Shown here piece after piece: positions 38,327-64,000 of a stretch of 64,000 nt of DNA. Positions within the stretch are counted from its first letter, which is position 1, and the number at the start of each line of letters is the position of its first letter. Both the position numbers and the translations under genes were made by a program. This DNA is from an uncultured Spirochaetales bacterium (lineage in GTDB: Bacteria; Spirochaetota; Spirochaetia; SZUA-6): the NCBI GenBank assembly GCA_964596425.1, contig CAZQTC010000023.1, positions 581,367 through 645,366 of the forward strand, read 5' to 3'. The notes beneath the pieces were generated by a model. That model searched no databases, had not been told where the DNA came from, and was given only the letters and a program-made list of their open reading frames with translations.

Positions 38327-38327
38327 A

Positions 38328-44413: not shown

Positions 44414-45558
44414 ATGGACAAAGCAAACATTATTTTCATCCTAACAGACCAACAGAGGTGGGACTCTACAGGAGTACATGGTAATCCCTTGAATTTAACT
44501 CCCAATTTCGATTACATAGCTAAAAAGGGAACTCATTTTAAAAATACTTTTACATGCCAGCCACTCTGTGGGCCAGCCCGATCTAGTCTCCAAACAGGAC
44601 TGTACCCCACTAATACGGGAGTATGGAAAAACTCCCTCCCTCTAAAAATGGAAGCAGTAACCCTGGCCCACCTCTTTAACAAAGCAGGTTATAAGACTGG
44701 CTACATAGGTAAAAAGATATTCCATTCATGCTCTTCCTTTCAATTTTTGAACCACATCATCAAAATAACCTTGACGCATTTGTTGCGCCGAGGGGATATG
44801 CTGAGAGATATCATGGAAAATGGATTCCCCCAGATCTCCAATCCCCTTATAGCACTGCTTACTACCAGCTCGGCGGTTACTGGGGAGCTATCAAGAGGAT
44901 AGACGAAGCTCTCGGAAGATTGCTAGATGCATTAACAAGTTTGAATCTATTGGATAAAACAATTCTTTTCTTTACCTCTGATCATGGCAACCACTTTAAA
45001 ACAAGGAACTCCGAATATAAGAGAAGCTGTCATGAGGCTTCTATTCGCATTCCTTTTGCAGCAATAGGACCAGGTTTTAACGGGGGAGGAGAAATAGATA
45101 AACTTGTTAGCCTGATTGATATTCCTCCTACTCTCTTGGAAGCGGCTGGAATAGAAGTACCGAAGTACATGGAAGGGCATTCACTACTACCTCTTATTAG
45201 AAGAGAAAACATAGAATGGCAGGATGATGTGTACATCCAAATTAGTGAAGACAAAGTCTCAAGAGCCATTAGAACTAAGAGATGGAAATATTCCGTCACT
45301 GCCACGGGTGTAGATGGATATAGCCAAGCTGATTCGGATGTATATACAGAGGAATTTCTCTATGATTTGACGGCAGATCCGTACGAACAGATAAACCTTA
45401 TAGATCACCCTGCATATATTAAAGCAAAAGAAATCATGAGAGAACGGCTATTAAAGCGAATGGAAACAATAGAGAAAAAAAGAGCAAAGATACTGCCTTG
45501 TAAACCAAAAGATATTACTGACCAGCGTGTGGTTTTTGAAAGCGAACTCTATGAGTAA
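44414..45558 (+). CDS. Second Cys-type sulfatase, interrupted by a frameshift in an A5 run
   Basis: N-terminal ORF (44414-44902) carries ILTDQQRWDS...PLCGPARSSLQTGLY; the C-terminal sulfatase part continues in another frame (44728-45558). Adding one A to the run at 44709-44713 joins them (…GYIGKKDIPFMLF…). Confidence 0.75.
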
Positions 45559-48077: not shown

Positions 48078-49817
48078 TTAATTCTCTTTCTCATCTATAT
48101 ATTCTACCCCCAATTTTTCAGTAGTGGAAAAGACCTTTATTTTCCTGGAAAATATAGAATCCATATTCGGAAAATCTTCTCTATAGAAAGAACCCCTAGA
48201 CTCTTTTCTCTCCAAGGAGGCCAAAGTTATTACAGAAGCCAATGTGACCAAATTCAAGAGTTCGTATTTCTTTCTAATATCAAAAGCATCTTTCACGGCC
48301 AGAAATGTAATATTCTCTCGAATTTTCTCAAGCTCTTCCTTAAGCCGTAGAAGACCAGCACCATCTCTTACCACATGTCCATATAACCACATCTTTTCCT
48401 TAAGTTTCTCTCGTAATTCCAAATAATTCCTCTCCCCCTTCCCACTCACAGGAAAAGGAAATAAATCTTGAACCTTAAATATGCTTCCACCATTTCTATT
48501 TAAAACGCCTTCTCTAAAGCTTCTAACTTCCAGGGCAGCATAGTATCCAGCTCTAGTTCCAAAAACTTGTGTAGAGGTCATCATATTTCCTCCAAGCCTA
48601 TCTGCTCCGTGAGGACCTGCTAGAGCCTCTCCGCAGACAAACAAATTCGGAATTTTACTTCTCGTGGTCTCATCTGCTTCAATTCCACCATTAAATGCAT
48701 GTGCGGCATGATCTATTTCCAGTAATTCTTTCGAAATATCTATATGATGTTCATCTTTTAACCAATTTATCCAAACATCGGTTACATCCGTCCACCTATT
48801 CAGTAGCACATCTCTCTCTTTGATATCCCAATAGTTACGCAAATCAACCATTACTCCCCTATGTTCAGAACCATCCCCATTTCTAATCTCTTTAAAAATT
48901 GCTATATCGAAATACCTAGATACTGTCCTGGCAGAGAACGGTCCATGAACAATTCTTTCACCCAATACCAAATCATAATTCACCCCTGGGGGGAGATACC
49001 TCTCAATGAAACGCTCACCTTTTCCATTGAGTATATCTGGACTGTAGTAAAGTGACCGTTCACTAAAAATTAAACGTTTGGGGAAAACTATCCCAAAGAT
49101 GAACTGAATAAATTCCATATTGTAAAGGCCAAGTCCAGCACGCAAAGCCAAACCATAGGTATCTCCGCTAGACTCACCAGAGTTCAAAGAATGTTTATAA
49201 ACGTTAGCCCCTCCACCAGTGGCAAGAATACATGCCTTAGCATTTATTCGAATAAATCGGCCATCAGAGGTAATTCCCACGAGACCTAGAAAGATTTTAT
49301 CTCGAATAATAAAATCCAACACCATAAAGTTCTCAAAGATTTTCGCTTTAGAACTCAAAAGCATCCTGTGGAAAGTGTCTCTTATATTTTTCATATCCAC
49401 GGCCGAGAGTGCACGCTTTTCCCTGCTGAAACATCCAATGATCTGTTCCAATTGCCCATTCCTCTCCTTAAACTGTAATCCCAACTCCTGTAGATCCTTA
49501 ACCCGTGAATATGCCTCTTCAACCAGCACCTTCACCAGGTTGGTATCTGTCATTCCCAATCCCCGATCAATAATTTCGTTGTAATACTTCTCTTTTGAAT
49601 CATCATTGTTTAAACCAGGAACAACAGCCTGCATCCCCCATCCGTGAACAAGGGAGAAAAACGAGGAACCTGAGTTTAAAATTTTTCCTTTCGAAACAAT
49701 AACTATATCGTTGACACCATTTTTTGCAGCTTCATAACAGGATCTAATACCTGCCGCCCCAGCTCCAACTACCACCAAATCGGTATTGATAGTGCTGTCC
49801 ACCTCAAAAGAATACAT
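48078..49817 (-). CDS. FAD-binding oxidoreductase (fumarate reductase/succinate dehydrogenase flavoprotein-like)
   Basis: 579 aa; N-terminal dinucleotide-binding motif VVVGAGAAGIRSCYEAA; flavoprotein-subunit-like regions (ATGGGANVY, GLYNMEFIQF). Confidence 0.75.
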   Translation of the reverse strand: MYSFEVDSTINTDLVVVGAGAAGIRSCYEAAKNGVNDIVIVSKGKILNSGSSFFSLVHGWGMQAVVPGLNNDDSKEKYYNEIIDRGLGMTDTNLVKVLVEEAYSRVKDLQELGLQFKERNGQLEQIIGCFSREKRALSAVDMKNIRDTFHRMLLSSKAKIFENFMVLDFIIRDKIFLGLVGITSDGRFIRINAKACILATGGGANVYKHSLNSGESSGDTYGLALRAGLGLYNMEFIQFIFGIVFPKRLIFSERSLYYSPDILNGKGERFIERYLPPGVNYDLVLGERIVHGPFSARTVSRYFDIAIFKEIRNGDGSEHRGVMVDLRNYWDIKERDVLLNRWTDVTDVWINWLKDEHHIDISKELLEIDHAAHAFNGGIEADETTRSKIPNLFVCGEALAGPHGADRLGGNMMTSTQVFGTRAGYYAALEVRSFREGVLNRNGGSIFKVQDLFPFPVSGKGERNYLELREKLKEKMWLYGHVVRDGAGLLRLKEELEKIRENITFLAVKDAFDIRKKYELLNLVTLASVITLASLERKESRGSFYREDFPNMDSIFSRKIKVFSTTEKLGVEYIDEKEN

Positions 49818-49919: not shown

Positions 49920-50780
49920 CTATCCCTTTAAAGCACCCATTGTTATTCCACTTATAAAGTATTTTTGGAAAAAGAGGAAAATCGCTATCATTGGAACCGC
50001 ACCAAAAGCTGCCCCAGACATCAACCGTCCGTAATCCACAATGAACTCGTTTCTTGCTACTTTAGCAATACCTACCGGCAAGGTTGACATAATTATATCC
50101 TTTGTAATAACAAGTTGCCACATATAATCGTTCCATGTATTTATAAAGTAAAGTATTCCAACTGTTCCAAAGGCAGGGATACTTAGAGGAAGAACAATGC
50201 TAATAAAAATCTTCCACTCTCCGGCGCCATCTATCTTTGCAGAAAGCAACAGATCCTCCGGTATACTCTGCATAAACTGTTTCATAAGAAACAAACCAAA
50301 TGGCCACGCAACCATCGGCAAAAACATTCCTGGGTAGGTATTATACAAGTGGTATTTATTCATAAGGATATACAGAGGTATCATCATAACCTGCTTAGGT
50401 ACCATCATTGCAGTTATTAATACCCAAAAAATTAACTCACGACCTGGAAATTTTTTCTTCCCAAATGCATAACCGGCCATTGAAGCAAAGATCAAAGTCA
50501 AAACCGTAGAAGAACCCGCGACAATAATACTGTTAATAAACCATCGAAGGGCCTTAGTACTGGTAAAAAGTTTCTCGAAGTTATGAAGAGTTAAATGAAC
50601 GGGTAGAAAATTGGGCGGCATCTTAATCGCGAGACTGGAGGGCTCAAAAGCCCCTAAGAACATCCAGTAGAGAGGGAATAGAAAAATAAATGCCAACACA
50701 AAAAGTAATCCAAGAGAGAAATAGAACCATACTTTTTCCACAAGAGTATATTGACGCAGCTCGTTTGTTTGAGTTAACAA
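49920..50780 (-). CDS. Sugar ABC transporter permease
   Basis: 286 aa; 6 TM helices; EAA-like loop (LLSAKIDGAGEWKIFISIVLPL). Confidence 0.85.
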   Translation of the reverse strand: MLTQTNELRQYTLVEKVWFYFSLGLLFVLAFIFLFPLYWMFLGAFEPSSLAIKMPPNFLPVHLTLHNFEKLFTSTKALRWFINSIIVAGSSTVLTLIFASMAGYAFGKKKFPGRELIFWVLITAMMVPKQVMMIPLYILMNKYHLYNTYPGMFLPMVAWPFGLFLMKQFMQSIPEDLLLSAKIDGAGEWKIFISIVLPLSIPAFGTVGILYFINTWNDYMWQLVITKDIIMSTLPVGIAKVARNEFIVDYGRLMSGAAFGAVPMIAIFLFFQKYFISGITMGALKG

Positions 50781-50797
50781 TATTCTCCTCCCTAATC

Positions 50798-51700
50798 TTA
50801 GTAATTTATTTCTTCACCGGCATACAATCTCTGCAGAACAGTCACAACCACAATCAATACAACCAATACCATTCCCATTGCCGAAGCTCTGCCGAATTGA
50901 TTAAACCAAAACGCTGTTTTATATATCTGAAAAACAATTGTCTCAGTTCTATGCGCCGGTCCACCATTAGTAAGAAGTTGCACCACAACCCATACCTGGA
51001 ATACAGCTATCGTTTGTGTCACAAAGAGGAAAAAAGTAGTCGGTTTTAACAGAGGGAAAGTTATCTTCCACTTAATCTCCCTCCTTGAAGCACCATCTAT
51101 CCTTGCAGCTTCATACAATTCTGATGGTATATTCATTATTGAAGCGAGATAAATAATCACAGGAACACCAAAATTAAAGGTAAAAACTACAAACATCAAA
51201 TAATAAATTGTACCCTTAGAAGCCAACCAAATAACAGGCTTAAAACCCAGTAGTTTCACTATATAATTCAGCAATCCAAAAGCCGGATTAAAAATCCACA
51301 ACCAAATGAGGCTCAAGATCACTCCACTTAACACCGTAGGGAGATAAAAAGCTCCTCTGAAAAAAGTTTTAAGAGAGTTATTAAGCGTGGAAATTTTAAG
51401 AGCAGCAAAGAAAGCAAGAAATACTATCGTAGGAACTAAAACAACCACGAAAAGAAAAGTATTTTTCAACGCCAATATAAACACGTTATCCCTGAAAATG
51501 CTCACAAAATTTGCCAGTCCCACCCATTTTGAACTTACCAAATTGGCATGTTTAAAACTTAGGAAAAAAGAAAGAATCAGAGGATAAAGGGTAAACAACA
51601 GAAACATCAATACACTAGGTAAGATAAAAAAATATGCCGCTTTTTCTTTTTTCATCGCTTTATATAATCTTACGATTCTACTCATTAAAACCATCCTCAT
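50798..51700 (-). CDS. Sugar ABC transporter permease
   Basis: 300 aa; EAA-like loop (EAARIDGASRREIKWKITFPL). Confidence 0.85.
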   Translation of the reverse strand: MRMVLMSRIVRLYKAMKKEKAAYFFILPSVLMFLLFTLYPLILSFFLSFKHANLVSSKWVGLANFVSIFRDNVFILALKNTFLFVVVLVPTIVFLAFFAALKISTLNNSLKTFFRGAFYLPTVLSGVILSLIWLWIFNPAFGLLNYIVKLLGFKPVIWLASKGTIYYLMFVVFTFNFGVPVIIYLASIMNIPSELYEAARIDGASRREIKWKITFPLLKPTTFFLFVTQTIAVFQVWVVVQLLTNGGPAHRTETIVFQIYKTAFWFNQFGRASAMGMVLVVLIVVVTVLQRLYAGEEINY

Positions 51701-51787
51701 ATAAGTAAATTATTCCATACCCCGATCATTCACTCTTTCAAATCCACACCTAATTAGTATAATAATGCAGAATAATATACAAAGATT

Positions 51788-51824
51788 CCCCCACCGTCAT
51801 AGCGGCGGGGGAGCACACTTTTTT
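51788..51824 (+). terminator. GC-rich stem-loop followed by a T6 run between the binding-protein and permease genes (intercistronic hairpin or plus-oriented terminator)
   Basis: CCCCCACCG (51788-51796) / loop TCATAG / CGGCGGGGG (51803-51811), then TTTTTT at 51819-51824. The genes are on the minus strand, where the hairpin is followed by only a moderately U-rich tract. Confidence 0.3.
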
Positions 51825-51825
51825 G

Positions 51826-53181
51826 CTATTTCTTAATCAAAGCCCGCACCTTATTGGCAAATGATTTCATAGCCTCCTCGGGTGTTTTTATCCCACTAAA
51901 CATAGCCTGTTCAGCTGCAGCAAGTTCTACTCTAATCTTACCATAATTAGGATTACTCAGACCAAAATCACCTGCTGGGTATTTGCTAAGCATATTCGTC
52001 ATAGCCATCATTAAAGGATCATCCTTGTACATATTCAAATCAGCAACACTCTTCGTTGCCGGAAACTGACCTGCATTTTTAACAGCCGGGGCATTGTACT
52101 TTGGCTGCATGGCAAACACGATAAAAGAGGCAGCAGCCTTCTGTTTTGCTGAGTCTTTCGTCATTATAACATACCCTGTAGGTCCAATCGCAGATTTCTG
52201 TTTAAAACCCGGTTTCGTAGGCATGTTAACAACAATTACTTTAGGTGGTTTTTTAACAAGCCCATCTTTATAAGCCTTCTGCATCAATGTCCTATAGTAA
52301 GCATTTCCACCCTGCATAAACTCTTTTTCTTGGGTCCACAGCTTCATTATATCGGAACCTGTCATAGACGCTACCCCGGGAACCATAAGCCCCTGTTTAT
52401 TAAGCGAGAGCAAATACTTATAAGCTGCTATTGTATTTGGAGAATCCGCAATTACATTCCCCTTACTATCAAACAAACCACCTCCAAATCCCCAAGTAAA
52501 TTTCCACCAAGTATAGTCACCCTGCTCACTTCCGCAAGCCATACCTAATGGGTATACACCATCGTTACTCCCTGCAGCTTTCATCTTTTTAAGTACAGTC
52601 ACGAATTGATCTGTTGTCCAATCTCCTCCCATCTTGGGAAGCATACTTGTCAAACCATACTTGTCAGTAAGATTACCATTTACAACGAGAGCTATTGACC
52701 ATGCCATGATCGGCATAGCATGCAATTTACCATGTATATAGTACAACCCTCTATAGGTGGGCAAAATATCATTCTTAAGAGAAGCAGGCAACAAATTATC
52801 CAAAGGAACAGCAGCACCCTGGATAAACCAACCGCCAGTTCTACCAAGATAGTCCGCCACCAGCTCCGGTGGATTACCACCAGCTATTGCAACGTTTATC
52901 TTGTCAACTCCACCCTCCCAAGGTACCAACTGGGTTTTAACTTCAATGTTGGGGTGACTCTTCATAAACTCCTTGGCCAAAAATTTTTCCCAATCACCGT
53001 ACTCTTTACTTACACCTTTAAATCCGGGAACATTGATGAAAATAGGGAAATGCCAAAAAGAAATTGTGACCTTCTGTTGTGGTGCTGCTCCCTTTGCTTT
53101 CTCACCTTGCCCACCAGCAAAAGCCATCGATGTTGCAACGATTAATATCATTACAACACCTAAAACTTTAAAAACTCTCAT
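51826..53181 (-). CDS. Sugar ABC transporter substrate-binding protein
   Basis: 451 aa; signal peptide; family-1 extracellular solute-binding protein. Confidence 0.85.
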   Translation of the reverse strand: MRVFKVLGVVMILIVATSMAFAGGQGEKAKGAAPQQKVTISFWHFPIFINVPGFKGVSKEYGDWEKFLAKEFMKSHPNIEVKTQLVPWEGGVDKINVAIAGGNPPELVADYLGRTGGWFIQGAAVPLDNLLPASLKNDILPTYRGLYYIHGKLHAMPIMAWSIALVVNGNLTDKYGLTSMLPKMGGDWTTDQFVTVLKKMKAAGSNDGVYPLGMACGSEQGDYTWWKFTWGFGGGLFDSKGNVIADSPNTIAAYKYLLSLNKQGLMVPGVASMTGSDIMKLWTQEKEFMQGGNAYYRTLMQKAYKDGLVKKPPKVIVVNMPTKPGFKQKSAIGPTGYVIMTKDSAKQKAAASFIVFAMQPKYNAPAVKNAGQFPATKSVADLNMYKDDPLMMAMTNMLSKYPAGDFGLSNPNYGKIRVELAAAEQAMFSGIKTPEEAMKSFANKVRALIKK

Positions 53182-53279: not shown

Positions 53280-54653
53280 TCACGTTAATCTTCCAAAACT
53301 ACTTACAGCCACTGGACCTGTTAAAAAATCCCACACTCTACCTTTAGCCACAGCACTACTTAAGATAGAAAAAGTACTTTCCAGAGCATTTTCATATCTT
53401 TCCAATATCATGTCTCTATTCACATAGTGGGCATAACTTGCATAGAAAGAGGTTCCTGCCAGAAAGCCTTGTCTTAACATCTCCTGGGAAAAGAGTGTAT
53501 TCAGTGCACGTCGTTCTTCCTCTACAGCAGAACCTTCATCGGATGAATTTGAAGAAAGTTCAAAACGAAAATGCATAAGTGCAAAACGACCCTCTATATT
53601 CACCTTAAGCCCATACTTAGAAGAAACAAATTCCCATATATGCTTCACCTCTTTCCCTACTTCCTCCAACTTCCTGGGAAGATCAATCCTCTCCATCTTT
53701 TCAACCGTTGCAAGAGCAGCAGCAGGTCCAACAGCCTCCGTCCAATAGGTACTACTTATAAAACTCTCCTGAGCCTTATCCATAACATTTGCTTTTCCAA
53801 TCACTGCAGCTATAGGGAAACCGTTTCCTAACGCTTTGGCAAAAACAGCTATATCAGGTTCTATCCCCAGTTCAAGATGAACACCACCAATGCTGTGTCG
53901 CCACCCGGATGTTATCTCATCAAAAATCAAAACACACCCACACTTCGTGGCTAGTCTCCGCACCTCTTCTAAAAAATTATCTCTGGGTTCCTGATATCTG
54001 AGGGGCTCCATTACAATAGTTCCAATTTTCTCTCCCTGAGATTCTAAAATATTTCTTAATTCATCTACCCGATTGTAGCCAAAAGGGAAAATTGTGCCTT
54101 TTAAGCTTTTTGGAACCCCATTGGGCAAAAGCCCAGACAACAAATGCCCATCAAGCTTAGAGTTATCAACAAGATTTGCTGCCAGATACCAATCATGCCA
54201 CCCGTGATAGCCACAAAAGGCTATTCCATCTCTACCCGAATAGGCTCGTGCAATTCTAATCGCAACTGTCATGATTTCTCCACCTGTGCGAGCAAATCTA
54301 ACCATCTCGGCCCATGGATGAAACTTGAGTAGGATCTCCGCAAGCTTAACCTCTAAATATGTATTTAGAGAAGACATACTTCCATTTCTCACAATATCTA
54401 TTACAGCCCTATTCACCTCTGGATCAGCGTAACCCAACACACATGTTCCTATTCCCATAGTACTCATATCCATGTATTGATTTCCGTCCAAGTCCCATAT
54501 AGAACACCCAGAGGCCCTTGAATAATATGCAGGCCATTGTTCAGGGACAAATAACTCAGGCCTTTTGCTAAAGAGTTGAGTTCCACCAGGAATTATCTGT
54601 TTAGCCCTTTTATAAAGCGCTTGCGTCTTTACTCTCTCAAAATCTCTTATCAT
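53280..54653 (-). CDS. Class-III (fold type I) PLP-dependent aminotransferase (glutamate-1-semialdehyde aminomutase-like)
   Basis: 457 aa; class-III aminotransferase architecture; lysine region (FAKALGNGFPIAAVIG) consistent with the PLP-Lys site. Confidence 0.85.
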   Translation of the reverse strand: MIRDFERVKTQALYKRAKQIIPGGTQLFSKRPELFVPEQWPAYYSRASGCSIWDLDGNQYMDMSTMGIGTCVLGYADPEVNRAVIDIVRNGSMSSLNTYLEVKLAEILLKFHPWAEMVRFARTGGEIMTVAIRIARAYSGRDGIAFCGYHGWHDWYLAANLVDNSKLDGHLLSGLLPNGVPKSLKGTIFPFGYNRVDELRNILESQGEKIGTIVMEPLRYQEPRDNFLEEVRRLATKCGCVLIFDEITSGWRHSIGGVHLELGIEPDIAVFAKALGNGFPIAAVIGKANVMDKAQESFISSTYWTEAVGPAAALATVEKMERIDLPRKLEEVGKEVKHIWEFVSSKYGLKVNIEGRFALMHFRFELSSNSSDEGSAVEEERRALNTLFSQEMLRQGFLAGTSFYASYAHYVNRDMILERYENALESTFSILSSAVAKGRVWDFLTGPVAVSSFGRLT

Positions 54654-54680
54654 TAGCCCCTATCCAAACAATTCCTTATA

Positions 54681-54806
54681 TTGCCAATTTTAACCATGCA
54701 TTTCCATATTGTCAATTGATTATACCAAATTTACTAATAATTTTCTATTTAGAACCTTATCATATATTATTAGCAATTTTAATTGACAAAAACATATTAT
54801 ATATGT
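54681..54806. promoter_or_regulatory. Divergent control region with inverted and direct repeats
   Basis: TTGTCAATT (54709-54717) and its inverse AATTGACAA (54781-54789); direct repeat CAATTTTAA at 54685-54693 and 54774-54782; palindrome ACATAT-TAT-ATATGT (54792-54806) 14 nt upstream of a GTG start. Confidence 0.35.
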
Positions 54807-54819
54807 TAATAGTTTTGAT

Positions 54820-55899
54820 GTGGATTCTTATTCAAGGGTCAAAAACACAATCCGAAAACAAGAACCAGACAGGCCCCCCACAGATTTTTCTGCAACCCCA
54901 GAAACTATCAAAAAGCTATTAACTAATCTTAAACTTGAAAATTTAAATCAACTTTTGGATTATTTTGAAATCGATATACGATGGGTTTACCCCAAATTTA
55001 TAGGCCCTAAGGAGCTTTCAGGTGCAGCGGGAGTAACTGCCAAAGGGAAAGATTTCCTCGGTATAGTCTGGAAACCTGTAAAAAATCGATACGCCACCTA
55101 CAATGAAATAGTCTATAGTCCTCTATCCGAAGCCAAAACAGTCAAGGAAATAGAAAACTATAATTGGCCCTCTGTCGATTGGTTCGATTTTTCCCATTTG
55201 AAAGAAATAATAAAACGAATAAACGAGAAAGAACAACACGCAATTGCATATTTCGCCGGAGGAGCCTTTGAAACCCCATGGTATATGCGTGGAATGGAAC
55301 AATTTTTAATCGATCTTGCAACACAACCAGAAATTGCAGAAGCAATAAGCAAAAAATGTGTGGAATTTTATAAGGCAAGAGCCTTAAAAGCATTGGAGCA
55401 AACCAATGGGCAAATAAATATCATCGGCAGTGGAGGAGATATTGGAACACAAAGGGGAATGATGATCTCCCCTGAAATATGGCGAAAACATATAAAGCCC
55501 TATACACGGGTATTAATAGAAACCTTTAAGAAAATGGGCTATATAACCTTCTATCATTCGTGTGGTTCAATTGTTCCTGTTATTGAGGATTTCATTGAAA
55601 TAGGATTAGATATTCTAGATCCTATCCAAACAAGTGCTACGGGGATGTCTCCTACCTTTCTAAAAGAAAAATTCGGAGAGAAACTAACCTTTCACGGTGG
55701 TATAGACGAACAGCAAATACTTCCTTTTTACACCCCAAAAGAGTTAGAAAAAGAAATTGTCCATTTAATAGATACCCTCGGCAAAGGCGGAGGATATATT
55801 CCTTGTGCGGCACATGCCATTCAACCCGATACACCAGTAGAAAATATAATCACAATGTACAAAACAATACTAAATTACAGATATAATTCCAAACAGTAA
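54820..55899 (+). CDS. Uroporphyrinogen-decarboxylase (URO-D)/MtaA-CmuA-family protein
   Basis: 359 aa with URO-D-fold-like sequence throughout; apparent GTG start (stop at 54811 excludes upstream ATG); no corrinoid protein gene nearby. Confidence 0.75.
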   Translation: MDSYSRVKNTIRKQEPDRPPTDFSATPETIKKLLTNLKLENLNQLLDYFEIDIRWVYPKFIGPKELSGAAGVTAKGKDFLGIVWKPVKNRYATYNEIVYSPLSEAKTVKEIENYNWPSVDWFDFSHLKEIIKRINEKEQHAIAYFAGGAFETPWYMRGMEQFLIDLATQPEIAEAISKKCVEFYKARALKALEQTNGQINIIGSGGDIGTQRGMMISPEIWRKHIKPYTRVLIETFKKMGYITFYHSCGSIVPVIEDFIEIGLDILDPIQTSATGMSPTFLKEKFGEKLTFHGGIDEQQILPFYTPKELEKEIVHLIDTLGKGGGYIPCAAHAIQPDTPVENIITMYKTILNYRYNSKQ

Positions 55900-55907: not shown

Positions 55908-56930
55908 CTACCAATCTAATGACGGTTGTGAGGTGATATCGACCCGTTCCTCTTTGCCACTCCGATAGCTCTTCTCTACCGCAGCAGTTATAGCTGTAAT
56001 CATCGCATTATCCATATAATTCAGAGGCCAATTACTCTTTCCCTTCACCGCATTAATAAACAGAGCAATCTCTTCAAAGTATGCATCCTCCAACACCTCC
56101 CTCTGCGTACCACACCGATAAACCTCGCCATGGGTATCATCATCAGTAACTTCCAACAGCCCCTTTAAGATGTCAAACTCAGCGATACCTTTTATTCCGG
56201 CTATCCAGCCCTTACGCATCACCCTTCTACTCCCGATAAGCAGACTAAAACTCCCGGCGAGTCTATCACCACCCTTAACAATGATATTCCAACAGTCCTC
56301 AAAGTTACCGGTAGTCTCCCCTCGCCTTCCTATGTGAGCATACACAGAGGAAAAATCTCTACCGAGAATATCCCATAGATAGGTAAGCTCGAAAGCAAGC
56401 ATATCCCTACCAGCAGAGGTTTCACGTTTACGAGCATAGTATTCTCTCCCTTCGTCAGAATGCCATGCCGGTTCATAAGTGGAGAGAAACATATGCCATG
56501 ATTGTACCTTACCAAGTATCCCAGAGTTAATTATCTCTTTTAATTTCTTTACAATTGGTAAAAAGATCATTGTATTGGAAGGAGCTGCAACCAATTTCTT
56601 TTCAGCAGCATTTTTCATAACAAAATCATAGTTGTAAGTCCAGATACTAGCCTCACAAAAGTGATGTAATCCATTTTCGACCGCAAATCGAACATAGTAA
56701 TCATGTTGATCCGGTGGAGTCGATATAACTAACACTTCAGGCGAAAATTCTTTTATCGCTCTGTCGAAAGTATCAAAAACAGGAATAGAAAACTGTTCCC
56801 TTGCCCTTTTACGCCTGTCCTCTCTCTTATCAAATAGGGCAACATCCAGTTTACCAATTTTTATCAAATCCCTCATCCGCCTAGTTCCCATAGATCCCCC
56901 TCCGATTTGAAGAACCTTCACTCTTTCCAT
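55908..56930 (-). CDS. Gfo/Idh/MocA-family oxidoreductase
   Basis: 340 aa; N-terminal Rossmann region (VLQIGGGSMGTRRMRDL). Confidence 0.75.
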   Translation of the reverse strand: MERVKVLQIGGGSMGTRRMRDLIKIGKLDVALFDKREDRRKRAREQFSIPVFDTFDRAIKEFSPEVLVISTPPDQHDYYVRFAVENGLHHFCEASIWTYNYDFVMKNAAEKKLVAAPSNTMIFLPIVKKLKEIINSGILGKVQSWHMFLSTYEPAWHSDEGREYYARKRETSAGRDMLAFELTYLWDILGRDFSSVYAHIGRRGETTGNFEDCWNIIVKGGDRLAGSFSLLIGSRRVMRKGWIAGIKGIAEFDILKGLLEVTDDDTHGEVYRCGTQREVLEDAYFEEIALFINAVKGKSNWPLNYMDNAMITAITAAVEKSYRSGKEERVDITSQPSLDW

Positions 56931-57194: not shown

Positions 57195-58523
57195 ATGAGT
57201 TCAAAATTAGCAATTGATGGAGGAGAACCGGTAATTGATCCCTCAACAATAAAACCATGGCCAATAATAGGTGAAAAAGAAAAACAGGCCGTAATGAGGG
57301 TCTTAGAGGGAGATTACCTCTGCGGTGGAGAAGCACCAGAAGTAAAGGCCCTGGAAGATGAATGGAGTAAATACATCGGCAGAAAACATTGTCTTACAAC
57401 GGCAAGCGGTACGGCTGCTTTACACATGGCATTAGCAGCTCTCAATATAGGTCCTGGAGACGAAGTTATAGTTCCAGCTTATACCTTTCTTGCCTCGGCC
57501 TCATGCGTCTTACACGCCAATGCAATTCCTATCTTTGTCGATATCGATAGGAAAACCTACACAATTGATCCTGATAAAATTGAAGAAAAAATAACAGAAA
57601 GAACAAAAGCCATAATTCCTGTGCATCTACATGGATTACCAGCTGATATGGACAAAATTCTCGAAATCGCAAAAAAACACAACCTATACGTAGTAGAAGA
57701 TGCCTGTCAGGCTCACGGCGCCGAGTACAAGGGTAAGAAAGTCGGTAACTTTGGGGAGCTAGCCGCTTTTAGTCTCAACAGCTCAAAAAATCTTTGTGCA
57801 GGAGAAGGTGGCCTTTTAGTAATGGATGACGATACATACTATATGCGAGCAAATATGCTAAGGATGTTTGGTGATGAGATAGATGACGAAACCAAACTAA
57901 GAGTCTACAACGCATCAATCCTGGGATACATGTACAGAAACCAAGAGCTACCGGCAGCTTTTACCAGAGCACAATTGGAACGCCTCGACGAGAACAATGA
58001 GATACGAATAAGGAATTGTAATTATCTAACAGAACATCTAAAGGATATTCCCGGGGTTCACACTCCCTATGTTCCAGATGGATACAAACATGTTTATTGG
58101 ATGTATATCGTAGAGTTTTATCCTGAAGAGGTTGGTATAGATATGAGCCCGCGTGAGTTTAGAATAGGCGTAGAAAAAGCTCTATTCGCAGAGGGTGTCC
58201 AGATTGGTCAATGGCAGACAATGCCAGTTCCGGCTCAGGATCTCTTCCAGACAAAAATGGGATATGCAGGGAGCGGATACCCATGGAATTATACCGAGCA
58301 TGGGAAACAAATAGTATATAGGGGAGAAGATTATCCCAATGCCATGGACCTATGTGACAGGTACACTGCCGTAGTAGGTTTTCAACCACCTAACGGATTG
58401 GATTTGATGGAAAAGTATGTAGAGGCATTTAAGAAAGTATTCTCCAACCTTGATGTAGTAAAAAAGCATTGGCAAGATAATATAGTAGCACACTATAGGG
58501 GTTATCTATTCCGGGCAAAGTAA
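57195..58523 (+). CDS. DegT/DnrJ/EryC1/StrS-family PLP-dependent sugar aminotransferase
   Basis: 442 aa; DegT-family architecture; lysine region (FSLNSSKNLCAGEGG) consistent with the PLP-Lys; GGAGG RBS. Confidence 0.85.
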   Translation: MSSKLAIDGGEPVIDPSTIKPWPIIGEKEKQAVMRVLEGDYLCGGEAPEVKALEDEWSKYIGRKHCLTTASGTAALHMALAALNIGPGDEVIVPAYTFLASASCVLHANAIPIFVDIDRKTYTIDPDKIEEKITERTKAIIPVHLHGLPADMDKILEIAKKHNLYVVEDACQAHGAEYKGKKVGNFGELAAFSLNSSKNLCAGEGGLLVMDDDTYYMRANMLRMFGDEIDDETKLRVYNASILGYMYRNQELPAAFTRAQLERLDENNEIRIRNCNYLTEHLKDIPGVHTPYVPDGYKHVYWMYIVEFYPEEVGIDMSPREFRIGVEKALFAEGVQIGQWQTMPVPAQDLFQTKMGYAGSGYPWNYTEHGKQIVYRGEDYPNAMDLCDRYTAVVGFQPPNGLDLMEKYVEAFKKVFSNLDVVKKHWQDNIVAHYRGYLFRAK

Positions 58524-58542
58524 AAATAAGGAGACTTGAATT

Positions 58543-59568
58543 ATGAAAAGACTATATGCGAGAAAACCATTTGACTTTAAAATAGAGGAGTTTGAACCAA
58601 AAAAACCGGGATTAAATGAGGTACTTGTAAAAGTCCATGCATGTGGAGTTTGCGGAACGGATCTCCACTTTGCAAGGGACTGGGGACCGGACTATGCGCC
58701 GCTGGGGCATGAAATCTCTGCAGAGGTAGTAGAAGTTGGAGAGGGTGACATTCCTTACTCACCTGGAGATAAAGTAATAGTAGAGGACGTAGCCCAGTGT
58801 GGTATATGCGAGGATTGTAAATCCGGTAAACCCTATCTCTGTAGAAACATGTACGATCTTCAGGGACAACCCGGCATGGCAGAGATGATGACAGTGAATT
58901 ACCATCTCCTTGACAAATTTGATGGGATTCCATGGGTAGATGCTACCCTAACAGAACCCATGGCTGTGGCCTACAACACTGTGTTGAATGCCAATATTCC
59001 ATTGGGAGGAAACGTTGTTATCATGGGTCCCGGACCAATAGGTCTTATGTGTGTGAGTCTTGCCAAAATGCGTGGGGCAGGAAAAATTGCACTAATAGGA
59101 ACTACAAAGAAAAAACCAAGAGGGAAGAAGAGGCTTGAGGCTGGAGAAGAACTGGGAGCGGATTATATAATACAATCCCAGGAGGAGGATCCTGTAAAGA
59201 GTGTCAAGGCAATTTTCCCAAAGGGAGCCGATAGTGTAATTGTTACATCACCTCCTAAAACTCTTCCACAGGCAACACAACTGGCCCGTTACGGAGGAAC
59301 TATAACCTATATAGGAATAAACCTTGGGGGACAACAGAGGATAGAACTCGATGTAAACGAACTTATATTTAACAAACATTCTCTAATACCTACATTTGCA
59401 GAACCGGCACAAAATTTTCCTGATACGATAAATATCTTAAGAAACAAGCTCTTCGACGCCTCAAAGATAATAACCACTACCTTTTCGTTCGAAGAGGCAG
59501 AGGAAATATTTAGAAAAGCTGATTCCGGAGAGGAGCCAATAATCAAAGCGGTACTGGTGACTTCATAA
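58543..59568 (+). CDS. Zinc-dependent alcohol dehydrogenase (MDR family, sorbitol/threonine-DH-like)
   Basis: 341 aa; catalytic Zn ligands (C...H...E), structural Zn Cys cluster (CGICEDCKSGKPYLC), GPGPIG NAD motif. Confidence 0.85.
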   Translation: MKRLYARKPFDFKIEEFEPKKPGLNEVLVKVHACGVCGTDLHFARDWGPDYAPLGHEISAEVVEVGEGDIPYSPGDKVIVEDVAQCGICEDCKSGKPYLCRNMYDLQGQPGMAEMMTVNYHLLDKFDGIPWVDATLTEPMAVAYNTVLNANIPLGGNVVIMGPGPIGLMCVSLAKMRGAGKIALIGTTKKKPRGKKRLEAGEELGADYIIQSQEEDPVKSVKAIFPKGADSVIVTSPPKTLPQATQLARYGGTITYIGINLGGQQRIELDVNELIFNKHSLIPTFAEPAQNFPDTINILRNKLFDASKIITTTFSFEEAEEIFRKADSGEEPIIKAVLVTS

Positions 59569-59584
59569 ACTTAAGAAGGGAGTT

Positions 59585-60817
59585 ATGGAAATACTTCTGC
59601 AAAATGGAAGAATCTTTCTCGAGAGTGGGGTTATCGAGAGGGGTTATTTACTCTTAAGGGATGGGATAATAATTTCTGTGGGTCCAATGGATATCACCCC
59701 AAGCTTAAATCCTTCAAGTTTAAATTCATCCCCCAGGGAAACCATCGACCTAAACGGTCTTATTGTTCTCCCCGGGCTAATTGACATTCACACACACGGC
59801 ATACTCAACATAAATATACTCAACTGTAACGAAGCCGATATAGCAAGAATGCTAGGCGAACTTATAAAATACGGAGTTACAGGATTTCTTCCAACAACAA
59901 TGGCATTTCCCCTGGATAGGATAATTAATCAGGTAAAAAATATTAAGAGGGTGAAAGACACACATCCACTTGGATCCATGATACTGGGAGTTCACCTAGA
60001 GGGACCATGGTTATCCATAAAAAAGAGGGGTGCGCATGCCGAAAAACATCTCTTAATTCCCCAAAAGAAAGACATCGAAAGGGTAGTAGAAGAAATAGGT
60101 GATATAGTAAAAACAGTCACCTTCTCTCCAGAGATAGAAAATGCCCCTCTTCTTACAGAGATGCTAGCTCAGAATGGAATAATTCCTGTGATTGGGCATA
60201 CGGCGGCTACCTACAAAGAGACCATGGCAGTAATTGAAAGAGGAGCAAGACATGTCACACATACCTTTGATGCTATGCATGGGTTTGGTGAAAAAGGTAA
60301 TGAACCAGGGGTTATGGAACCGGGAGTAGAAACTGCGGTTCTTATAAATGACTCTGTAAGTATAGAGTTAATAGGGTGTCCCATCCATGTCCCCTTACCA
60401 TTTTTTAAACTTGTAGATAAGATAAAACCTGAAGACAAAAAGATACTTATAACCGATGCAGGAATAGGTACAGGAATGCCCAATGGTACCATCGTAGAGA
60501 TAGAACCGGGAAGAAAGGCTTATGTAGACGGGGGAGTTTTACGCCTCACTGGAGAGAGGGACCCCAAATTAAACGGCGGACTTGCAGGAAGTGCCGTAAC
60601 AATGAATGTTGCCCTGAAACGACTGGTAACACTTGCAAATATTCCCCTTTACAAGGCCATAAGATGGGCATCCAGCAACCCTGCCATTCTATTGGGAATC
60701 AATAACATAATGGGAAGCATACGTCCCGGAAAGAAAGCTAATATAACAATAATCAATGATAATTTTAAAGTAAAGTTTACAATATTAGAGGGCAAAATAG
60801 TTTACAGAGGAGATTAA
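59585..60817 (+). CDS. nagA: N-acetylglucosamine-6-phosphate deacetylase-like amidohydrolase
   Basis: 410 aa; amidohydrolase-1 metal ligands (IDIHTHG...); NagA-like length and organisation. Confidence 0.75.
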   Translation: MEILLQNGRIFLESGVIERGYLLLRDGIIISVGPMDITPSLNPSSLNSSPRETIDLNGLIVLPGLIDIHTHGILNINILNCNEADIARMLGELIKYGVTGFLPTTMAFPLDRIINQVKNIKRVKDTHPLGSMILGVHLEGPWLSIKKRGAHAEKHLLIPQKKDIERVVEEIGDIVKTVTFSPEIENAPLLTEMLAQNGIIPVIGHTAATYKETMAVIERGARHVTHTFDAMHGFGEKGNEPGVMEPGVETAVLINDSVSIELIGCPIHVPLPFFKLVDKIKPEDKKILITDAGIGTGMPNGTIVEIEPGRKAYVDGGVLRLTGERDPKLNGGLAGSAVTMNVALKRLVTLANIPLYKAIRWASSNPAILLGINNIMGSIRPGKKANITIINDNFKVKFTILEGKIVYRGD

Positions 60818-60820
60818 CCT

Positions 60821-62116
60821 ATGAAGGCAGGTGCATCAAAAGTAGAAATAACACCTAAAATCGGAGTGTGGTTGGATGGTATTCCAAGAGATAAACCCTC
60901 AGACAGTATTCTGTCTCCACTCTACGCACGTACTCTCTACATTACGAACGGAATAACAGAAGTTGTAATTGTGGTATGCGATGTAATAGGTTTAGACGAA
61001 AGGGACGTGACAGAGATAAAAAGATCAATAGAAAAACAAATCGGTATCTCTGAGGAAAATATAGTAATAGCATCTACTCACACTCATTCAGGACCCTCCA
61101 CCCTGGGGATTTTGGCTCCCAAAGAAATGGATTATCTTAAGGAACTACCTCCCAAAATCATCCACGCTGTGATAGAGGCAAAAAAATCCGCTGCTGATTG
61201 CAAAATAAAGGTCACCTATGGCTACGAACCCATGATAAGCGAATACAGGAGACTCAAAGACAAAAATGGGAAAATATGGATGAATTGGGAAGAGTACGAC
61301 AAAAATAACATCGTAGGACCGGCAGGACCCTACGATCCAGAAGTGGGAATTATCAGCATAGTGGATAACAGCGATAACACCATAGCACTTCTCTTCAATC
61401 ATACCGGACATCCCAATACACTAACCGGATTTGACTATGCAATTACATCAGATTACCCGGGAGAAGCCTGCAGATTACTGGAAGACAAATTTGGGGGTAC
61501 TGCAATTTTCTTTAACGGTGCCCAAGGAAGTTCCGATATACCAGGATTCAATGATCGAAATCCAGAAGGTATAAAGAAACGGGGTAAAATCCTCTACCAG
61601 GCGGTAGTTGATACTCTGGACGAAAATAAGGAAGAATACATTTTTACAAACAAATTGGGAATACTTAAGGTTAAAGTAAAAATACCGCGACGCGAGATTC
61701 CAAACAGTGAGATAGAGAATGCAAAAGAGATAATTCAAAGAGCCAACCACGGTGAAAAGAGCTTAAGGGATGGAGTTGATGAGGACATATATGCAAAGTG
61801 GCTATTAGATTTACTGGCTGAAAATAAAGAAAGTTATCTACTTCCATTTAGTGGTATCAGAATAGGAGATGCATACATTTTTGCAGAACCAGGAGAACTA
61901 TTCACAGAAATAGGATTACGTATCAAGAAATATTCTCCATTTACCTACACATTCATAATGGGACTTGCAGACGGTTATTTTGGTTACATTCCCACAGCAA
62001 GAGCCATACGGGAGGGTGGGTATGCCACAAGAACAGGCATACATAGCAAACTTGACAAGCATGCGGAAAATTACATTATAGCCACTGCTATCAGACTTGG
62101 GGAGGAACTCATATGA
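60821..62116 (+). CDS. Neutral/alkaline ceramidase-like N-terminal-domain hydrolase (putative N-acyl amidase)
   Basis: 431 aa; ASTHTHSGP motif typical of the neutral-ceramidase domain family; no signal peptide; 4 nt after the nagA-like gene; ATGA overlap with the next gene. Confidence 0.55.
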   Translation: MKAGASKVEITPKIGVWLDGIPRDKPSDSILSPLYARTLYITNGITEVVIVVCDVIGLDERDVTEIKRSIEKQIGISEENIVIASTHTHSGPSTLGILAPKEMDYLKELPPKIIHAVIEAKKSAADCKIKVTYGYEPMISEYRRLKDKNGKIWMNWEEYDKNNIVGPAGPYDPEVGIISIVDNSDNTIALLFNHTGHPNTLTGFDYAITSDYPGEACRLLEDKFGGTAIFFNGAQGSSDIPGFNDRNPEGIKKRGKILYQAVVDTLDENKEEYIFTNKLGILKVKVKIPRREIPNSEIENAKEIIQRANHGEKSLRDGVDEDIYAKWLLDLLAENKESYLLPFSGIRIGDAYIFAEPGELFTEIGLRIKKYSPFTYTFIMGLADGYFGYIPTARAIREGGYATRTGIHSKLDKHAENYIIATAIRLGEELI

Positions 62117-63006
62117 AATTGATTTACTCTGCGACGATAACACCCCTCAAAGATGAAACACATGTGGACCAAGTTTCTCTGGAACGACTGTTAAAATTCA
62201 ACCTAGAAATGGGAATCAAAGGCTTTTTTTTCTTCGGAAGCATGGGTGAATGGGCACTTCTAAATAACAAAATGCGGGAGGAAATCTTGGAGGTCGGAGC
62301 TTCGCTGCTAAAGGGAAAAGCCGAGATAATAGCGGGTATCTCCTCCACAGGTCTAAATGGAATACTGGAAAATATGGAAAAAGCTTCCAAATATGGGGTA
62401 GACTCCTACGCAGTAATGTTTCCCAGTGGTTGGGCAGGACCACAAGAACCGGTAGACTACCTACATCACATAGCAGATGTATCAGACAGGCCCCTATATT
62501 TATATTATCTCCCTTCCTATAACGGAATTTCACTCACCAAGGAAGAGCTACAAAATATCCTAAAACATACCAATATTAAAGGAATAAAAAACTCCTCAGA
62601 CAGCTTAAAAAAGCGAAAAGAACTTCTTAATCTCCGAAAGCAAATTGATTTTCTCCTATTTGAGGGACAGGAGTGGGTGGTAGATGAGTCACTCTTTCTA
62701 GGTTGTGACGGAGCCCTTGTGGGAATGGGATCTTTAGCCGGCAAACTGTTCTCTCAGATTGCCAGAGCTGTAGATGAAGGACAATTCAAAGAAGCTTCCA
62801 GACTCCAAAATATACTTATTGAGATATTTGACGGTATATACGGGAAAAATCTTACAACTGTTTGGATAGGTCAAAAATATGCACTGGAACTACTTGGGTT
62901 ATTTTCCACTCATATAACCCTCGTCCCGTCACAAAAAGAATTGGGAAGAGAAGAAAAAAAACGAATTGAAAATTGTGTAGAGAAGTATAGAGAGTATCTC
63001 ACTTGA
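62113..63006 (+). CDS. DapA/NanA-family class-I aldolase (N-acetylneuraminate lyase/DHDPS-like)
   Basis: 297 aa; DHDPS/NAL-family TIM-barrel-like sequence (GFFFFGSMGEWALL...). Confidence 0.8.
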   Translation: MKLIYSATITPLKDETHVDQVSLERLLKFNLEMGIKGFFFFGSMGEWALLNNKMREEILEVGASLLKGKAEIIAGISSTGLNGILENMEKASKYGVDSYAVMFPSGWAGPQEPVDYLHHIADVSDRPLYLYYLPSYNGISLTKEELQNILKHTNIKGIKNSSDSLKKRKELLNLRKQIDFLLFEGQEWVVDESLFLGCDGALVGMGSLAGKLFSQIARAVDEGQFKEASRLQNILIEIFDGIYGKNLTTVWIGQKYALELLGLFSTHITLVPSQKELGREEKKRIENCVEKYREYLT

Positions 63007-63040: not shown

Positions 63041-64000
63041 ATGAAGAGTAATATGACAAAAGTAAGGAATCAACAATCACTCAGAGCTCACAATCGAATA
63101 AATATCCTAAATCTCATTCGTGAAAAGGGAAAAATTTCCAGAGTAGATATCTCTAATCAATTCTCAATCGATAAAAAAACCGTATCTAATATCGTTGACT
63201 CGCTCATAAGAGAGTCACTCGTGACATCTGCGGGGTTCAAAGAGTCGGTAGCTGGTCGGCGTCAGGAGCTTCTACAGATAAACGGTTCCCATACCAACTA
63301 CATTGGCATAGATCTTGGGGCGACCCACATTATTGGCATTCTAACAGACCTAAACGCCAAAACTTTAGATAGAGTTTACTACGAAATACGGCCAGGCCTC
63401 TCCGTAGAACTTATTATCAATCAGATGAAAACAATACTCGACAAATTACTACACTCAAAAAATGCAACGGCCCCTATTGAATCCGTCGGTATATGCGTCC
63501 CTGGATTTATCAACCCTAAAGCCGGTATATCAATAATCTCCGAAAACATACCAGGCTGGCAGGATGTGAACCTAAAGGAAATTTTTAAACGCGAAATTAA
63601 CAAACCGATTTATTTGGAAGATTCCTCACGCACCCTTGGATTGGCGGAGAAATGGTTAGGACACGGAAGAAATCAAAAAAATTTCATAGTACTGGATCTT
63701 GGATATGGGATCGGAATGGCCATCTTTATCGATGGCAAACTCTATACCGGATATTCTTACAAATCTGGAGAAATAGGTCATACTATAGTAAAAGTAGATG
63801 GTGAAAAATGTGTATGTGGGAACAGAGGATGTCTAGAAACAGTTGCCTCTGGAAAAGCCATAGCCAAAGAGGCTCTAAGAGCGATCAAAGAAAAAAAATC
63901 AGAGATTCTCTATGGTTTAACACATGGAAAGGCAGAATCGGTAACAGCACAGGACGTTTCCATAGCAGCAAGTATGGGGGATAAATTTTCAATTAATCTA
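63041..64000 (+). CDS. ROK-family transcriptional regulator (NagC/Mlc-like), C-terminus beyond the window
   Basis: Not in the supplied ORF track because it runs off the end. Reads MKSNMTKVRNQQSLRAHNRINILNLIREKGKISRVDI... (wHTH) followed by ROK motifs (GIDLGATH; CVCGNRGCLE). Confidence 0.8.
   Translation, partial: MKSNMTKVRNQQSLRAHNRINILNLIREKGKISRVDISNQFSIDKKTVSNIVDSLIRESLVTSAGFKESVAGRRQELLQINGSHTNYIGIDLGATHIIGILTDLNAKTLDRVYYEIRPGLSVELIINQMKTILDKLLHSKNATAPIESVGICVPGFINPKAGISIISENIPGWQDVNLKEIFKREINKPIYLEDSSRTLGLAEKWLGHGRNQKNFIVLDLGYGIGMAIFIDGKLYTGYSYKSGEIGHTIVKVDGEKCVCGNRGCLETVASGKAIAKEALRAIKEKKSEILYGLTHGKAESVTAQDVSIAASMGDKFSINL

Follow-up and report, generated by a model that had tools for sequence, protein, structure and literature searches.

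Characterized members of the uroporphyrinogen decarboxylase (UroD) superfamily are either the decarboxylase of the haem pathway or zinc-dependent alkyl transferases, most of the latter tied to corrinoid proteins (PMC10418091). Here we examine a UroD-superfamily gene on the plus strand (positions 54820–55899) of a 64,000-nucleotide stretch of DNA from an uncultured Spirochaetales bacterium (contig CAZQTC010000023.1); we refer to this whole stretch as the window. The gene starts with GTG and encodes 359 amino acids that are predicted to fold as a (β/α)8 barrel. The protein is a cytoplasmic barrel of the UroD/MtaA/MetE superfamily, and we are confident that it is an uncharacterized member acting in a sugar pathway, distinct from both HemE and MtaA. 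We tentatively propose that it carries out a metal-dependent lyase step in the catabolism of an acylated amino or deoxy sugar acid.

By sequence profile, the best relatives of the window protein are the methyltransferases MtaA, MtbA, MtsA, and CmuA (TIGR01463; PDB 4AY7). They have the same fold (template modelling (TM) score of about 0.7), and the H-x-C motif of their metal site is found at the same strand end in the window protein. Identity is 14–16 per cent, however, and His332 stands in place of the third zinc cysteine. MtaA-type enzymes also work in C1 metabolism with corrinoid partners, whereas the relatives of the window protein are embedded in sugar catabolism, with no such partner in any locus. 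HemE (TIGR01464; PDB 1URO and 2EJA) shares the fold and is an equally good structural match; the histidine of its ‘NLGHG’ motif aligns with His332, and it requires no organic cofactor. Its N-terminal substrate-binding third is unmatched in the window protein, though, and there is no haem pathway context here. Going by the human UROD sequence, HemE would also lack the H-x-C metal motif.

MetE, core-MetE, and the epoxyalkane:coenzyme M (CoM) transferase (Meth_synt_2) belong to the same clan and build a corrinoid-free zinc site on H-x-C. MetE-type enzymes differ in that the zinc activates a thiol through a His-Cys-Glu-Cys set, and they are a weaker structural match (TM about 0.5). A more distant comparison is the mannonate dehydratase UxuA, a TIM barrel with a Mn/Fe site made of His, Cys, His, and Asp. 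This ligand set shows that β-elimination on a sugar acid is feasible, but UxuA is a mechanistic analogy only: it comes from another TIM-barrel clan (xylose-isomerase-like) with no detectable homology to the UroD-like protein.

The O-, S-, and halide-demethylases OdmB, VdmB, MtvB, MtoB, and CdmB are members of the same superfamily as the window protein. Their substrates are aryl methyl ethers or methyl halides. They are encoded beside a corrinoid protein, an activase, and a second methyltransferase, partners that the window locus lacks. In the O-directed demethylases, zinc cysteines are replaced by harder or non-coordinating residues (PMC10418091), a change with which the harder ligands predicted for the clade of the window protein would be compatible.

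Results

A separate branch of the UroD fold

The preliminary description of this DNA called the product of 54820–55899 a URO-D/MtaA-family protein, which both sequence and structure comparisons bear out. The Pfam URO-D profile (PF01208) matches residues 106–350 over profile positions 100–343 (E = 2.6e-21), with 76.5 bits against a cut-off of 23.9. The suggested comparison with URO-D subfamily models placed every curated model far under its cut-off. The NCBIfam hemE model (TIGR01464) scores 25.6 bits against 302.95 and covers residues 215–350 only (E = 5.6e-6). For the MtaA/CmuA-type families, with cut-offs taken from TIGR01463, NF004889, and NF040654, the scores are 48.6 bits against 235 for mtaA_cmuA (TIGR01463; E = 6.5e-13), 44.1 against 244 for methylcobalamin:CoM methyltransferase, and 33 against 400 for MtaA. 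A Pfam scan of the protein gave no Meth_synt_2 match.

The first 100 positions of the URO-D profile, where the HemE substrate motif lies, are unmatched in the window protein, and no HemE-type motif is visible in its N-terminal sequence (MDSYSRVKNTIRKQEPDRPPTDFSATPE). We take an RQAGR-type motif and a catalytic Asp to be the mark of this substrate-binding region (profile positions 1–100) in HemE. Sequence searches of the PDB were marginal. The best match was MtaA (4AY7), for which a single-sequence query gave E = 0.12 and a family profile E = 2e-4; CdmB (9RUI) was a weak family-profile match (E = 0.25). An AlphaFold model built on our homologue alignment (A1) had a predicted local distance difference test score (pLDDT) of 91.4 and a predicted TM score (pTM) of 0.89. 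Foldseek matched this model about equally well to HemE (E = 3e-13) and MtaA (E = 2e-12), with TM scores of 0.6–0.7 and 12–16 per cent identity, and more distantly to MetE (TM about 0.5). The model has an extra N-terminal β-hairpin region at residues ~53–99.

HemE identity is ruled out by the NCBIfam score, the missing N-terminal motif, and the lack of haem gene context. MtaA, MtbA, and CmuA are likewise ruled out by their scores, by the change of the third zinc cysteine to His332, and by the absence of a co-encoded corrinoid protein or activase. The NCBIfam models indicate no orthology to HemE, and no corrinoid protein or MtaB-like partner is encoded next to the gene.

A homologue search returned 1,933 matches, of which the best 120 are all 55–100 per cent identical to the window protein. 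Few of these 120 are named, and those are called just ‘uroporphyrinogen decarboxylase (family protein)’ or ‘hypothetical protein’, in keeping with the earlier view that the protein may have an unassigned role. Searching 1.84 billion cluster representatives with a profile gave 1,801 matches at E ≤ 1e-30; relaxing the threshold to 1e-10 and then 1e-3 raised the number to 7,177 and 13,719. When we give the clade size as ~1,800, we mean clusters at 50 per cent identity with E ≤ 1e-30. The best 150 cluster matches are mostly full-length (~350 amino acids), with few fragments. Judged by sequence, then, the window protein falls in a large unnamed clade that forms a separate UroD-fold branch. Full-text literature searches found no publication on this clade.

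A putative metal site with harder ligands

HMMER alignments place H246-S-C248 of the window protein opposite the zinc-binding H-x-C of MtaA (LHICG), and H332 opposite both the third zinc-binding cysteine of MtaA and the histidine of HemE ‘NLGHG’. We counted residue conservation over 141 divergent cluster representatives. H246 is invariant (141/141), as are D207 and Q270, alongside the further invariant glutamines Q211 and Q298. Position 248 is Cys in 119 clusters and Asp in twenty-two (16 per cent), position 264 is Asp in 117 and Glu in eleven, and position 332 is His in 117, Gln in fifteen, and Asn in eight. UroD-like paralogs in the same loci also show Cys-to-Asp and His-to-Asp changes at the putative ligand positions; such swaps are typical of metal ligands. 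These alignments suggest that the clade retains the metal positions of the superfamily with harder ligands, the candidates being His246, Cys248, Asp264, and His332. Cys329 was considered as a zinc ligand and rejected: 90 per cent of the close orthologs have it, but most members of the wider clade carry Ala, Ser, or Gly at this position.

From their positions at the C-terminal ends of strands in the predicted model (e.g. H246), the putative ligands would cluster in space. Secondary structure would likewise put D207, Q211, Q270, Q298, and the Trp residues at the barrel mouth. The remaining invariant residues in A1 are mostly Asp, Gln, and Trp (Trp among close orthologs), a set that appears consistent with a polyhydroxylated substrate.

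In the UroD superfamily, the S-methyltransferases bind zinc through His-Cys-Cys, whereas the O-directed members carry carboxylates or non-ligands in place of one or both Cys, which favours oxygen binding (PMC10418091). By this rule the site of the clade would be of the ‘hard’ kind and therefore suit a substrate oxygen rather than a thiol. The change of the third Cys to His, and of Cys248 to Asp in 16 per cent of clusters, is compatible with the zinc site of an O-demethylase, though not specific to it.

A recurring catabolic gene set

We scanned related loci using one genome per species, which gave sixty-three loci, all from metagenome-assembled genomes and together covering more than ten phyla. 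The closest are from Spirochaetes (68–71 per cent identity), followed by Bacteroidetes, Latescibacterota, Actinomycetota, and several planctomycete lineages. Aerophobetes, Kiritimatiellaeota, Omnitrophota, Armatimonadota, Verrucomicrobia, Lentisphaerae, Chloroflexi, and Clostridia are also represented. A further locus, L064, carries a 79 per cent identical ortholog and is completely syntenic with the second block of conserved families in the window (45.5–64 kb).

Clustering the neighbouring open reading frames (ORFs) of the sixty-three loci showed that the UroD-like gene travels with one recurring catabolic gene set across more than ten phyla. The most frequent members are an HpcH/HpaI aldolase (thirteen loci), a cytoplasmic BNR_2 β-propeller (twelve), a short-chain dehydrogenase/reductase (SDR) and an aldo-keto reductase (AKR; eleven each), a 316-amino acid Gfo-like protein (ten), the class-III aminotransferase of the window type (eight), and two Cys-rich proteins of ~160 amino acids (seven each). 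NagA-like, NagB-like, ceramidase-like, NanA-like/DHDPS, and Amidohydro_2 proteins, major facilitator superfamily (MFS) transporters, and GntR regulators also recur. Among 150 genes lying at most two positions from the UroD-like gene, the Pfam counts are fifteen for BNR_2, ten for Gfo/Idh/MocA, seven for MFS, six each for DHDPS, AKR, and GntR, five for SDR, and four for Aminotran_3. The preliminary description had asked whether orthologs co-occur with the aminotransferase and the oxidoreductase that flank the gene in the window. For the aminotransferase they do, in eight loci, and the association is kept in other phyla; the adjacent type of Gfo/Idh/MocA gene (340 amino acids) is less conserved, with three loci.

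Some loci are compact. L068 is a short operon of SDR, Gfo-like, UroD-like, AKR, and HpcH genes, and L070 holds nearly the whole gene set in a fifteen-gene operon on a single strand. In L007 and L011, a 770-amino acid fusion joins Amidohydro_2 to Aminotran_3; its halves correspond to two separate proteins in the window, and the steps they catalyse are therefore functionally linked.

The BNR gene lies directly 5′ of the UroD-like gene in L001–L003, L007, L011, L014, L015, L022, and L062, and in about seven loci it ends between a small overlap and ~45 nt before the UroD-like gene. This arrangement suggests that the two products form a two-protein unit, and outside the window no other partner is coupled so tightly. 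The BNR/Asp-box propellers are ~370 amino acids long. We rejected a canonical sialidase for them because a signal peptide is absent and the sialidase RIP motif is missing its Arg. Their best PDB relatives are an uncharacterized protein and sialidases (E ~1e-7).

The small Cys-rich proteins (145–190 amino acids) are found as a pair in the window (37838–38765, minus strand) and in L005, L010, L011, L015, L025, and L061, often beside a NanA-like lyase. One carries a CPS...YCxHC...C pattern and the other a weak ATC_hydrolase match (E = 9e-4); PDB sequence searches with both returned nothing. Another family, of 311–323 amino acids and without a Pfam match, is encoded in L003 (4366–5337), L007 (15869–16804), L025, L035, and L055. 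It contains a NagB-like ‘GPGWTGHLAFIEPDAPEF’ motif and is probably a divergent sugar-amine deaminase or isomerase, its recognition as NagB-like being based on GHLAFIEP.

L065, L021, L024, and L059 show other contexts of the clade. In L065 (2752–11077), three UroD-family paralogs are found among GHL10/GHL6-like, GH42-like, AP_endonuc_2, and sulfatase genes. Loci from Armatimonadia have a conserved DUF4127, GHL10, UroD-like gene order, while those from Clostridia show the order AP_endonuc_2, Gfo, DUF3604-like, UroD-like, GNAT, with Asp in place of Cys248.

No corrinoid partner at any locus

The preliminary description noted that no corrinoid protein, methyltransferase partner, or haem genes lie near the UroD-like gene. 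For the corrinoid protein, motif scanning, tblastn, and Pfam all support this, and its absence extends to sixty-nine related loci. A six-frame scan for the DxHxxG...SxL...GG motif found no corrinoid protein in the window or the sixty-three loci. A tblastn search of the window and sixty-nine loci (~1 Mb) with the B12-binding domain of MetH also returned nothing, a result that is supportive only, as no positive control was included. Pfam annotation of L064–L070 identified no corrinoid protein or activase, and Pfam searches of the ORFs beside MttB-like genes identified no corrinoid protein. For its first 20 kb, the window was covered by two of these searches, the motif scan and the B12-domain tblastn. 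Altogether, the searches detected neither a corrinoid protein nor an activase nor a pterin methyltransferase, whether in the window or in the sixty-nine loci from more than ten phyla.

Seven related loci do contain orphan MttB-superfamily genes (L003, L007/L070, L010, L011, L037, L055, and L062). Most adjoin the Amidohydro_2 and aminotransferase genes, and in L037 the MttB-like gene is directly 5′ of the UroD-like gene. To our knowledge, all characterized members of the MttB family are corrinoid-dependent methyltransferases.

Gene content of the window

In the window, the UroD-like gene lies between a class-III aminotransferase and a Gfo/Idh/MocA oxidoreductase, with a sugar ATP-binding cassette (ABC) transporter near by, as first described and now confirmed with Pfam and NCBIfam. 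The oxidoreductase gene (55908–56930, minus strand; 340 amino acids) is convergent with the UroD-like gene across an 8-nt gap. The divergent Aminotran_3 gene (53280–54653, minus strand) encodes a glutamate-1-semialdehyde aminomutase (GSAM)-like aminotransferase that is 53 per cent identical to the C-terminal half of the 770-amino acid fusion. Its best NCBIfam match is glutamate-1-semialdehyde aminomutase at 265 bits against a cut-off of 486, and HemL-type models as a group score 203–265 bits against cut-offs of 486–527. PDB searches place it among sugar C-6′ aminotransferases and other class-III transaminases. A HemL-like (GSAM-family) gene thus adjoins a HemE-like gene (53280–55899), and this pair recurs in sugar loci of several phyla; it is an annotation trap that a pipeline could read as hemL and hemE. 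No genuine hem genes were seen near the UroD-like gene.

Downstream of the aminotransferase on the minus strand is the ABC sugar transporter (49920–53181), which is syntenic in L064 and consists of a solute-binding protein (51826–53181) and two permeases (50798–51700 and 49920–50780). The last gene of this operon encodes a FAD_binding_2/fumarate-reductase-like flavoprotein (48078–49817). An Amidohydro_2 protein of the lactonase/decarboxylase family, recognized by profile (45569–46558, minus strand), is 31 per cent identical to the N-terminal half of the fusion.

On the other side, a five-gene operon (57195–63006, plus strand) has the same order in L064. It encodes a DegT-family aminotransferase (57195–58523), a Zn-alcohol dehydrogenase (58543–59568), a NagA-like deacetylase (59585–60817), a ceramidase-like amidase (60821–62116), and a DHDPS/NanA-like lyase (62113–63006). 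The deacetylase is the sole gene to score above its equivalog cut-off (255 bits against 226). A ROK-family regulator or kinase follows (63041–64000, plus strand) and is truncated by the end of the window; L064 has a ROK protein with a helix-turn-helix domain in the same place.

Further members of the conserved gene set make up another block on the minus strand (37838–42470), with an SDR (41655–42470), an aldo-keto reductase (40562–41575), a second SDR (39790–40575), the Gfo-like 316-amino acid protein (38843–39793), and the two Cys-rich proteins of 145–162 amino acids (38328–38765 and 37838–38326). Sulfatase genes separate the two blocks of conserved families (37.8–42.5 and 45.5–64 kb). The first lies at 42698–44392 (plus strand). 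The second is split on the plus strand into two overlapping ORFs, with 44414–44902 matching Sulfatase profile positions 2–100 and 44728–45558 matching positions 178–301 plus SGSH_C; the cause is either a frameshift, which would make it a pseudogene, or an error in sequencing. No BNR, HpcH, or MttB-like genes are present in the window.

With two aminotransferases, amidases of the NagA-like and ceramidase-like types, a NanA-like lyase, a ROK protein, and sulfatases, the island looks more like amino-sugar or sialic-acid-like catabolism than plain sugar catabolism. Further upstream (23295–37616) is an unrelated starch/maltodextrin locus with a LacI regulator, an alpha-amylase-family protein, an ABC transporter, a glucan phosphorylase, and two GH57 enzymes, one of which carries an SLH-like glucodextranase domain at its C terminus. 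This locus stands between the sugar island and Rnf-type genes further upstream.

Start codon and upstream spacer

The GTG start given in the preliminary description is supported by three agreeing observations: an identical 359-amino acid sequence is present in the public protein collection, twenty-six homologues from many phyla begin at the same aligned position as the window ORF (A1), and L064 has an ATG opposite the GTG. The 166-bp spacer upstream (54654–54819) serves this gene and the aminotransferase/ABC operon as a divergent promoter region. It contains a perfect 9-nt inverted repeat (TTGTCAATT at 54709–54717 and AATTGACAA at 54781–54789), with a TTGACA −35-like box inside either arm. The minus-strand box is part of an 11/12 promoter match for the aminotransferase operon, and the TATATTGTCAAT box is kept in L064. 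The plus-strand box (54783–54788) is only ~30 nt 5′ of the GTG, with no Shine-Dalgarno sequence ahead of the start codon. The transcript of the UroD-like gene may therefore lack a leader or have only a very short one.

The palindrome reported just before the GTG does exist (AACATAT-TAT-ATATGTT, 54791–54807, ending 12 nt before the start codon), but it carries little weight. Its arms are only 7 nt long, it lies in an AT-rich spacer, and it is not kept in L064. Given these short arms, the AT-rich DNA, and its absence from L064, we rejected it as a significant operator.

Discussion

The gene set as a whole would degrade an imported, acylated amino or deoxy sugar acid, probably a sialic-acid-like ulosonic acid. 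Uptake would be through the ABC or an MFS transporter. The set also supplies two amidases, two aminotransferases or the NagB-like deaminase, and several dehydrogenases, which may yield a keto-sugar or sugar acid. Amidohydro_2 may act as a lactonase. The NanA-like lyase and HpcH aldolase would provide two pyruvate-releasing cleavages, with the final aldehyde handled by the aldo-keto reductase.

What this scheme lacks is a classical enzyme for dehydration or decarboxylation. Neither the dehydratase families MR_MLE, ILVD_EDD, UxuA, and GD_AH nor a classical sugar-acid decarboxylase family was found in the Pfam-annotated loci or among the twenty-five commonest families of each set. We therefore propose, tentatively, that the UroD-like enzyme supplies that step as a metal-dependent lyase. 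A divalent metal would polarize a substrate oxygen and stabilize the enolate of a keto-sugar or sugar acid. β-Elimination could then release water, or possibly methanol from an O-methyl group, or CO2 from a β-keto acid. Such a mechanism would need no corrinoid. The two reactions suggested in the preliminary description, demethylation of an O-methyl sugar and decarboxylation of a sugar acid, are both compatible with our results.

Several points weigh against a lyase. The argument from a missing dehydratase presumes an oxidative sugar-acid route, and a 3-deoxy-2-ulosonic acid would need no dehydratase before the first aldol cleavage. The metal site itself is read from alignments. The recurrence of MttB-like genes is the strongest argument for methyl transfer somewhere in the pathway. 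Moreover, we know of no UroD-superfamily member that is a metal-dependent lyase. Besides HemE, all characterized members transfer alkyl groups at a zinc-bound heteroatom (PMC10418091).

The main rival to the lyase reading is a sugar O-demethylase of the MT1 type, in which the metal would bind the ether oxygen and the methyl group would pass to a Co(I) corrinoid that is free or encoded elsewhere. We consider this unlikely, if by a smaller degree of doubt than the alternatives that follow. Aliphatic methyl ethers yield to Co(I) attack far less readily than aryl methyl ethers do, which weighs against it. So does the fact that the window and the sixty-nine loci yielded neither a corrinoid protein nor an activase nor a pterin methyltransferase, as known UroD/corrinoid systems are often colocalized (PMC10418091). 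A core corrinoid module (MtgC/MtgD) has nevertheless been described that serves both methionine synthesis and a substrate-specific MttB-type enzyme (PMC12478193), and by this precedent for a shared housekeeping module the carrier could be encoded elsewhere. The closest profile relatives are also on the side of a demethylase, with MtaA/CmuA at E = 6.5e-13 against 5.6e-6 for hemE and MtaA as the best PDB sequence match, and the zinc-site scaffold is kept with harder, oxygen-favouring ligands (PMC10418091). The orphan MttB-like genes of seven related loci fit as well, but many loci, the window included, have none. Finally, the several UroD-like paralogs beside glycoside hydrolases and sulfatases in L065 would suit enzymes that strip decorations.

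Another reading, to which we give rather long odds, is that the clade removes decorations from sugars without oxygen or a co-encoded corrinoid protein, stripping methyl ethers or other O-alkyl groups. One route would be metal-assisted β-elimination of methanol from a keto- or uronate intermediate produced by the neighbouring dehydrogenases. The other would be an unconventional methyl transfer involving the BNR propeller and the orphan MttB-like proteins, with no classical corrinoid protein.

It is improbable, in our estimation, that the protein is a corrinoid-independent alkyl transferase or ether-opening enzyme comparable to MetE or the epoxyalkane:CoM transferase. Here a metal-activated thiol, hydroxyl, or water would attack an electrophilic sugar carbon, for example to open an anhydro-sugar ring. 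Intramolecular trans-sialidases make such rings, and the tight coupling of the UroD-like gene to a sialidase-like BNR propeller and to Gfo/Idh/MocA enzymes recalls the processing of anhydro-sialic acid. However, the BNR partner lacks the RIP Arg and is absent from the window. MetE and the epoxide:CoM transferase do provide a precedent as corrinoid-free superfamily members (PMC10418091), and MetE is a fold match, though a weaker one. Against this, the thiol-activating His-Cys-Cys site is absent, Pfam gives no Meth_synt_2 match, and no candidate thiol cofactor is evident.

Tight coupling to the BNR gene in several phyla could also point to a non-catalytic barrel, either a sugar-binding or regulatory protein or a scaffold subunit for the propeller. 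We regard this as very improbable, since D207, H246, and Q270 are invariant over ~140 divergent clusters and are predicted at the C-terminal ends of strands, a pattern typical of an active enzyme, and since the window and L064 carry the gene without BNR. A classical role as HemE or as an MtaA/MtbA-type methylcorrinoid:thiol methyltransferase, for which the URO-D fold and the adjoining HemL-like gene might be cited, can be dismissed with near certainty: equivalog scores are 8- to 20-fold under their cut-offs, the HemE N-terminal motif is absent and the third zinc Cys is a His, the HemL-like neighbour is itself far under its cut-off and groups with sugar C-6′ aminotransferases and class-III transaminases, and the context is carbohydrate catabolism in all loci examined.

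The clade of ~1,800 clusters shares the fold and metal position of the UroD superfamily but has no corrinoid partner, unlike most alkyl transferases of the superfamily. It is accompanied by a conserved, previously undescribed set of catabolic genes that spans more than a dozen families. We see it as a good lead for enzyme discovery more than a surprise in itself. Solving the reaction would settle what thousands of genes annotated as ‘uroporphyrinogen decarboxylase family protein’ do and would probably reveal a new pathway for an amino or deoxy sugar acid. It might also show how bacteria deal, without oxygen, with sugars that are methylated or decorated in other ways. If the clade does strip such decorations, this would explain how anaerobic polysaccharide degraders of many phyla cope with methylated sugars.

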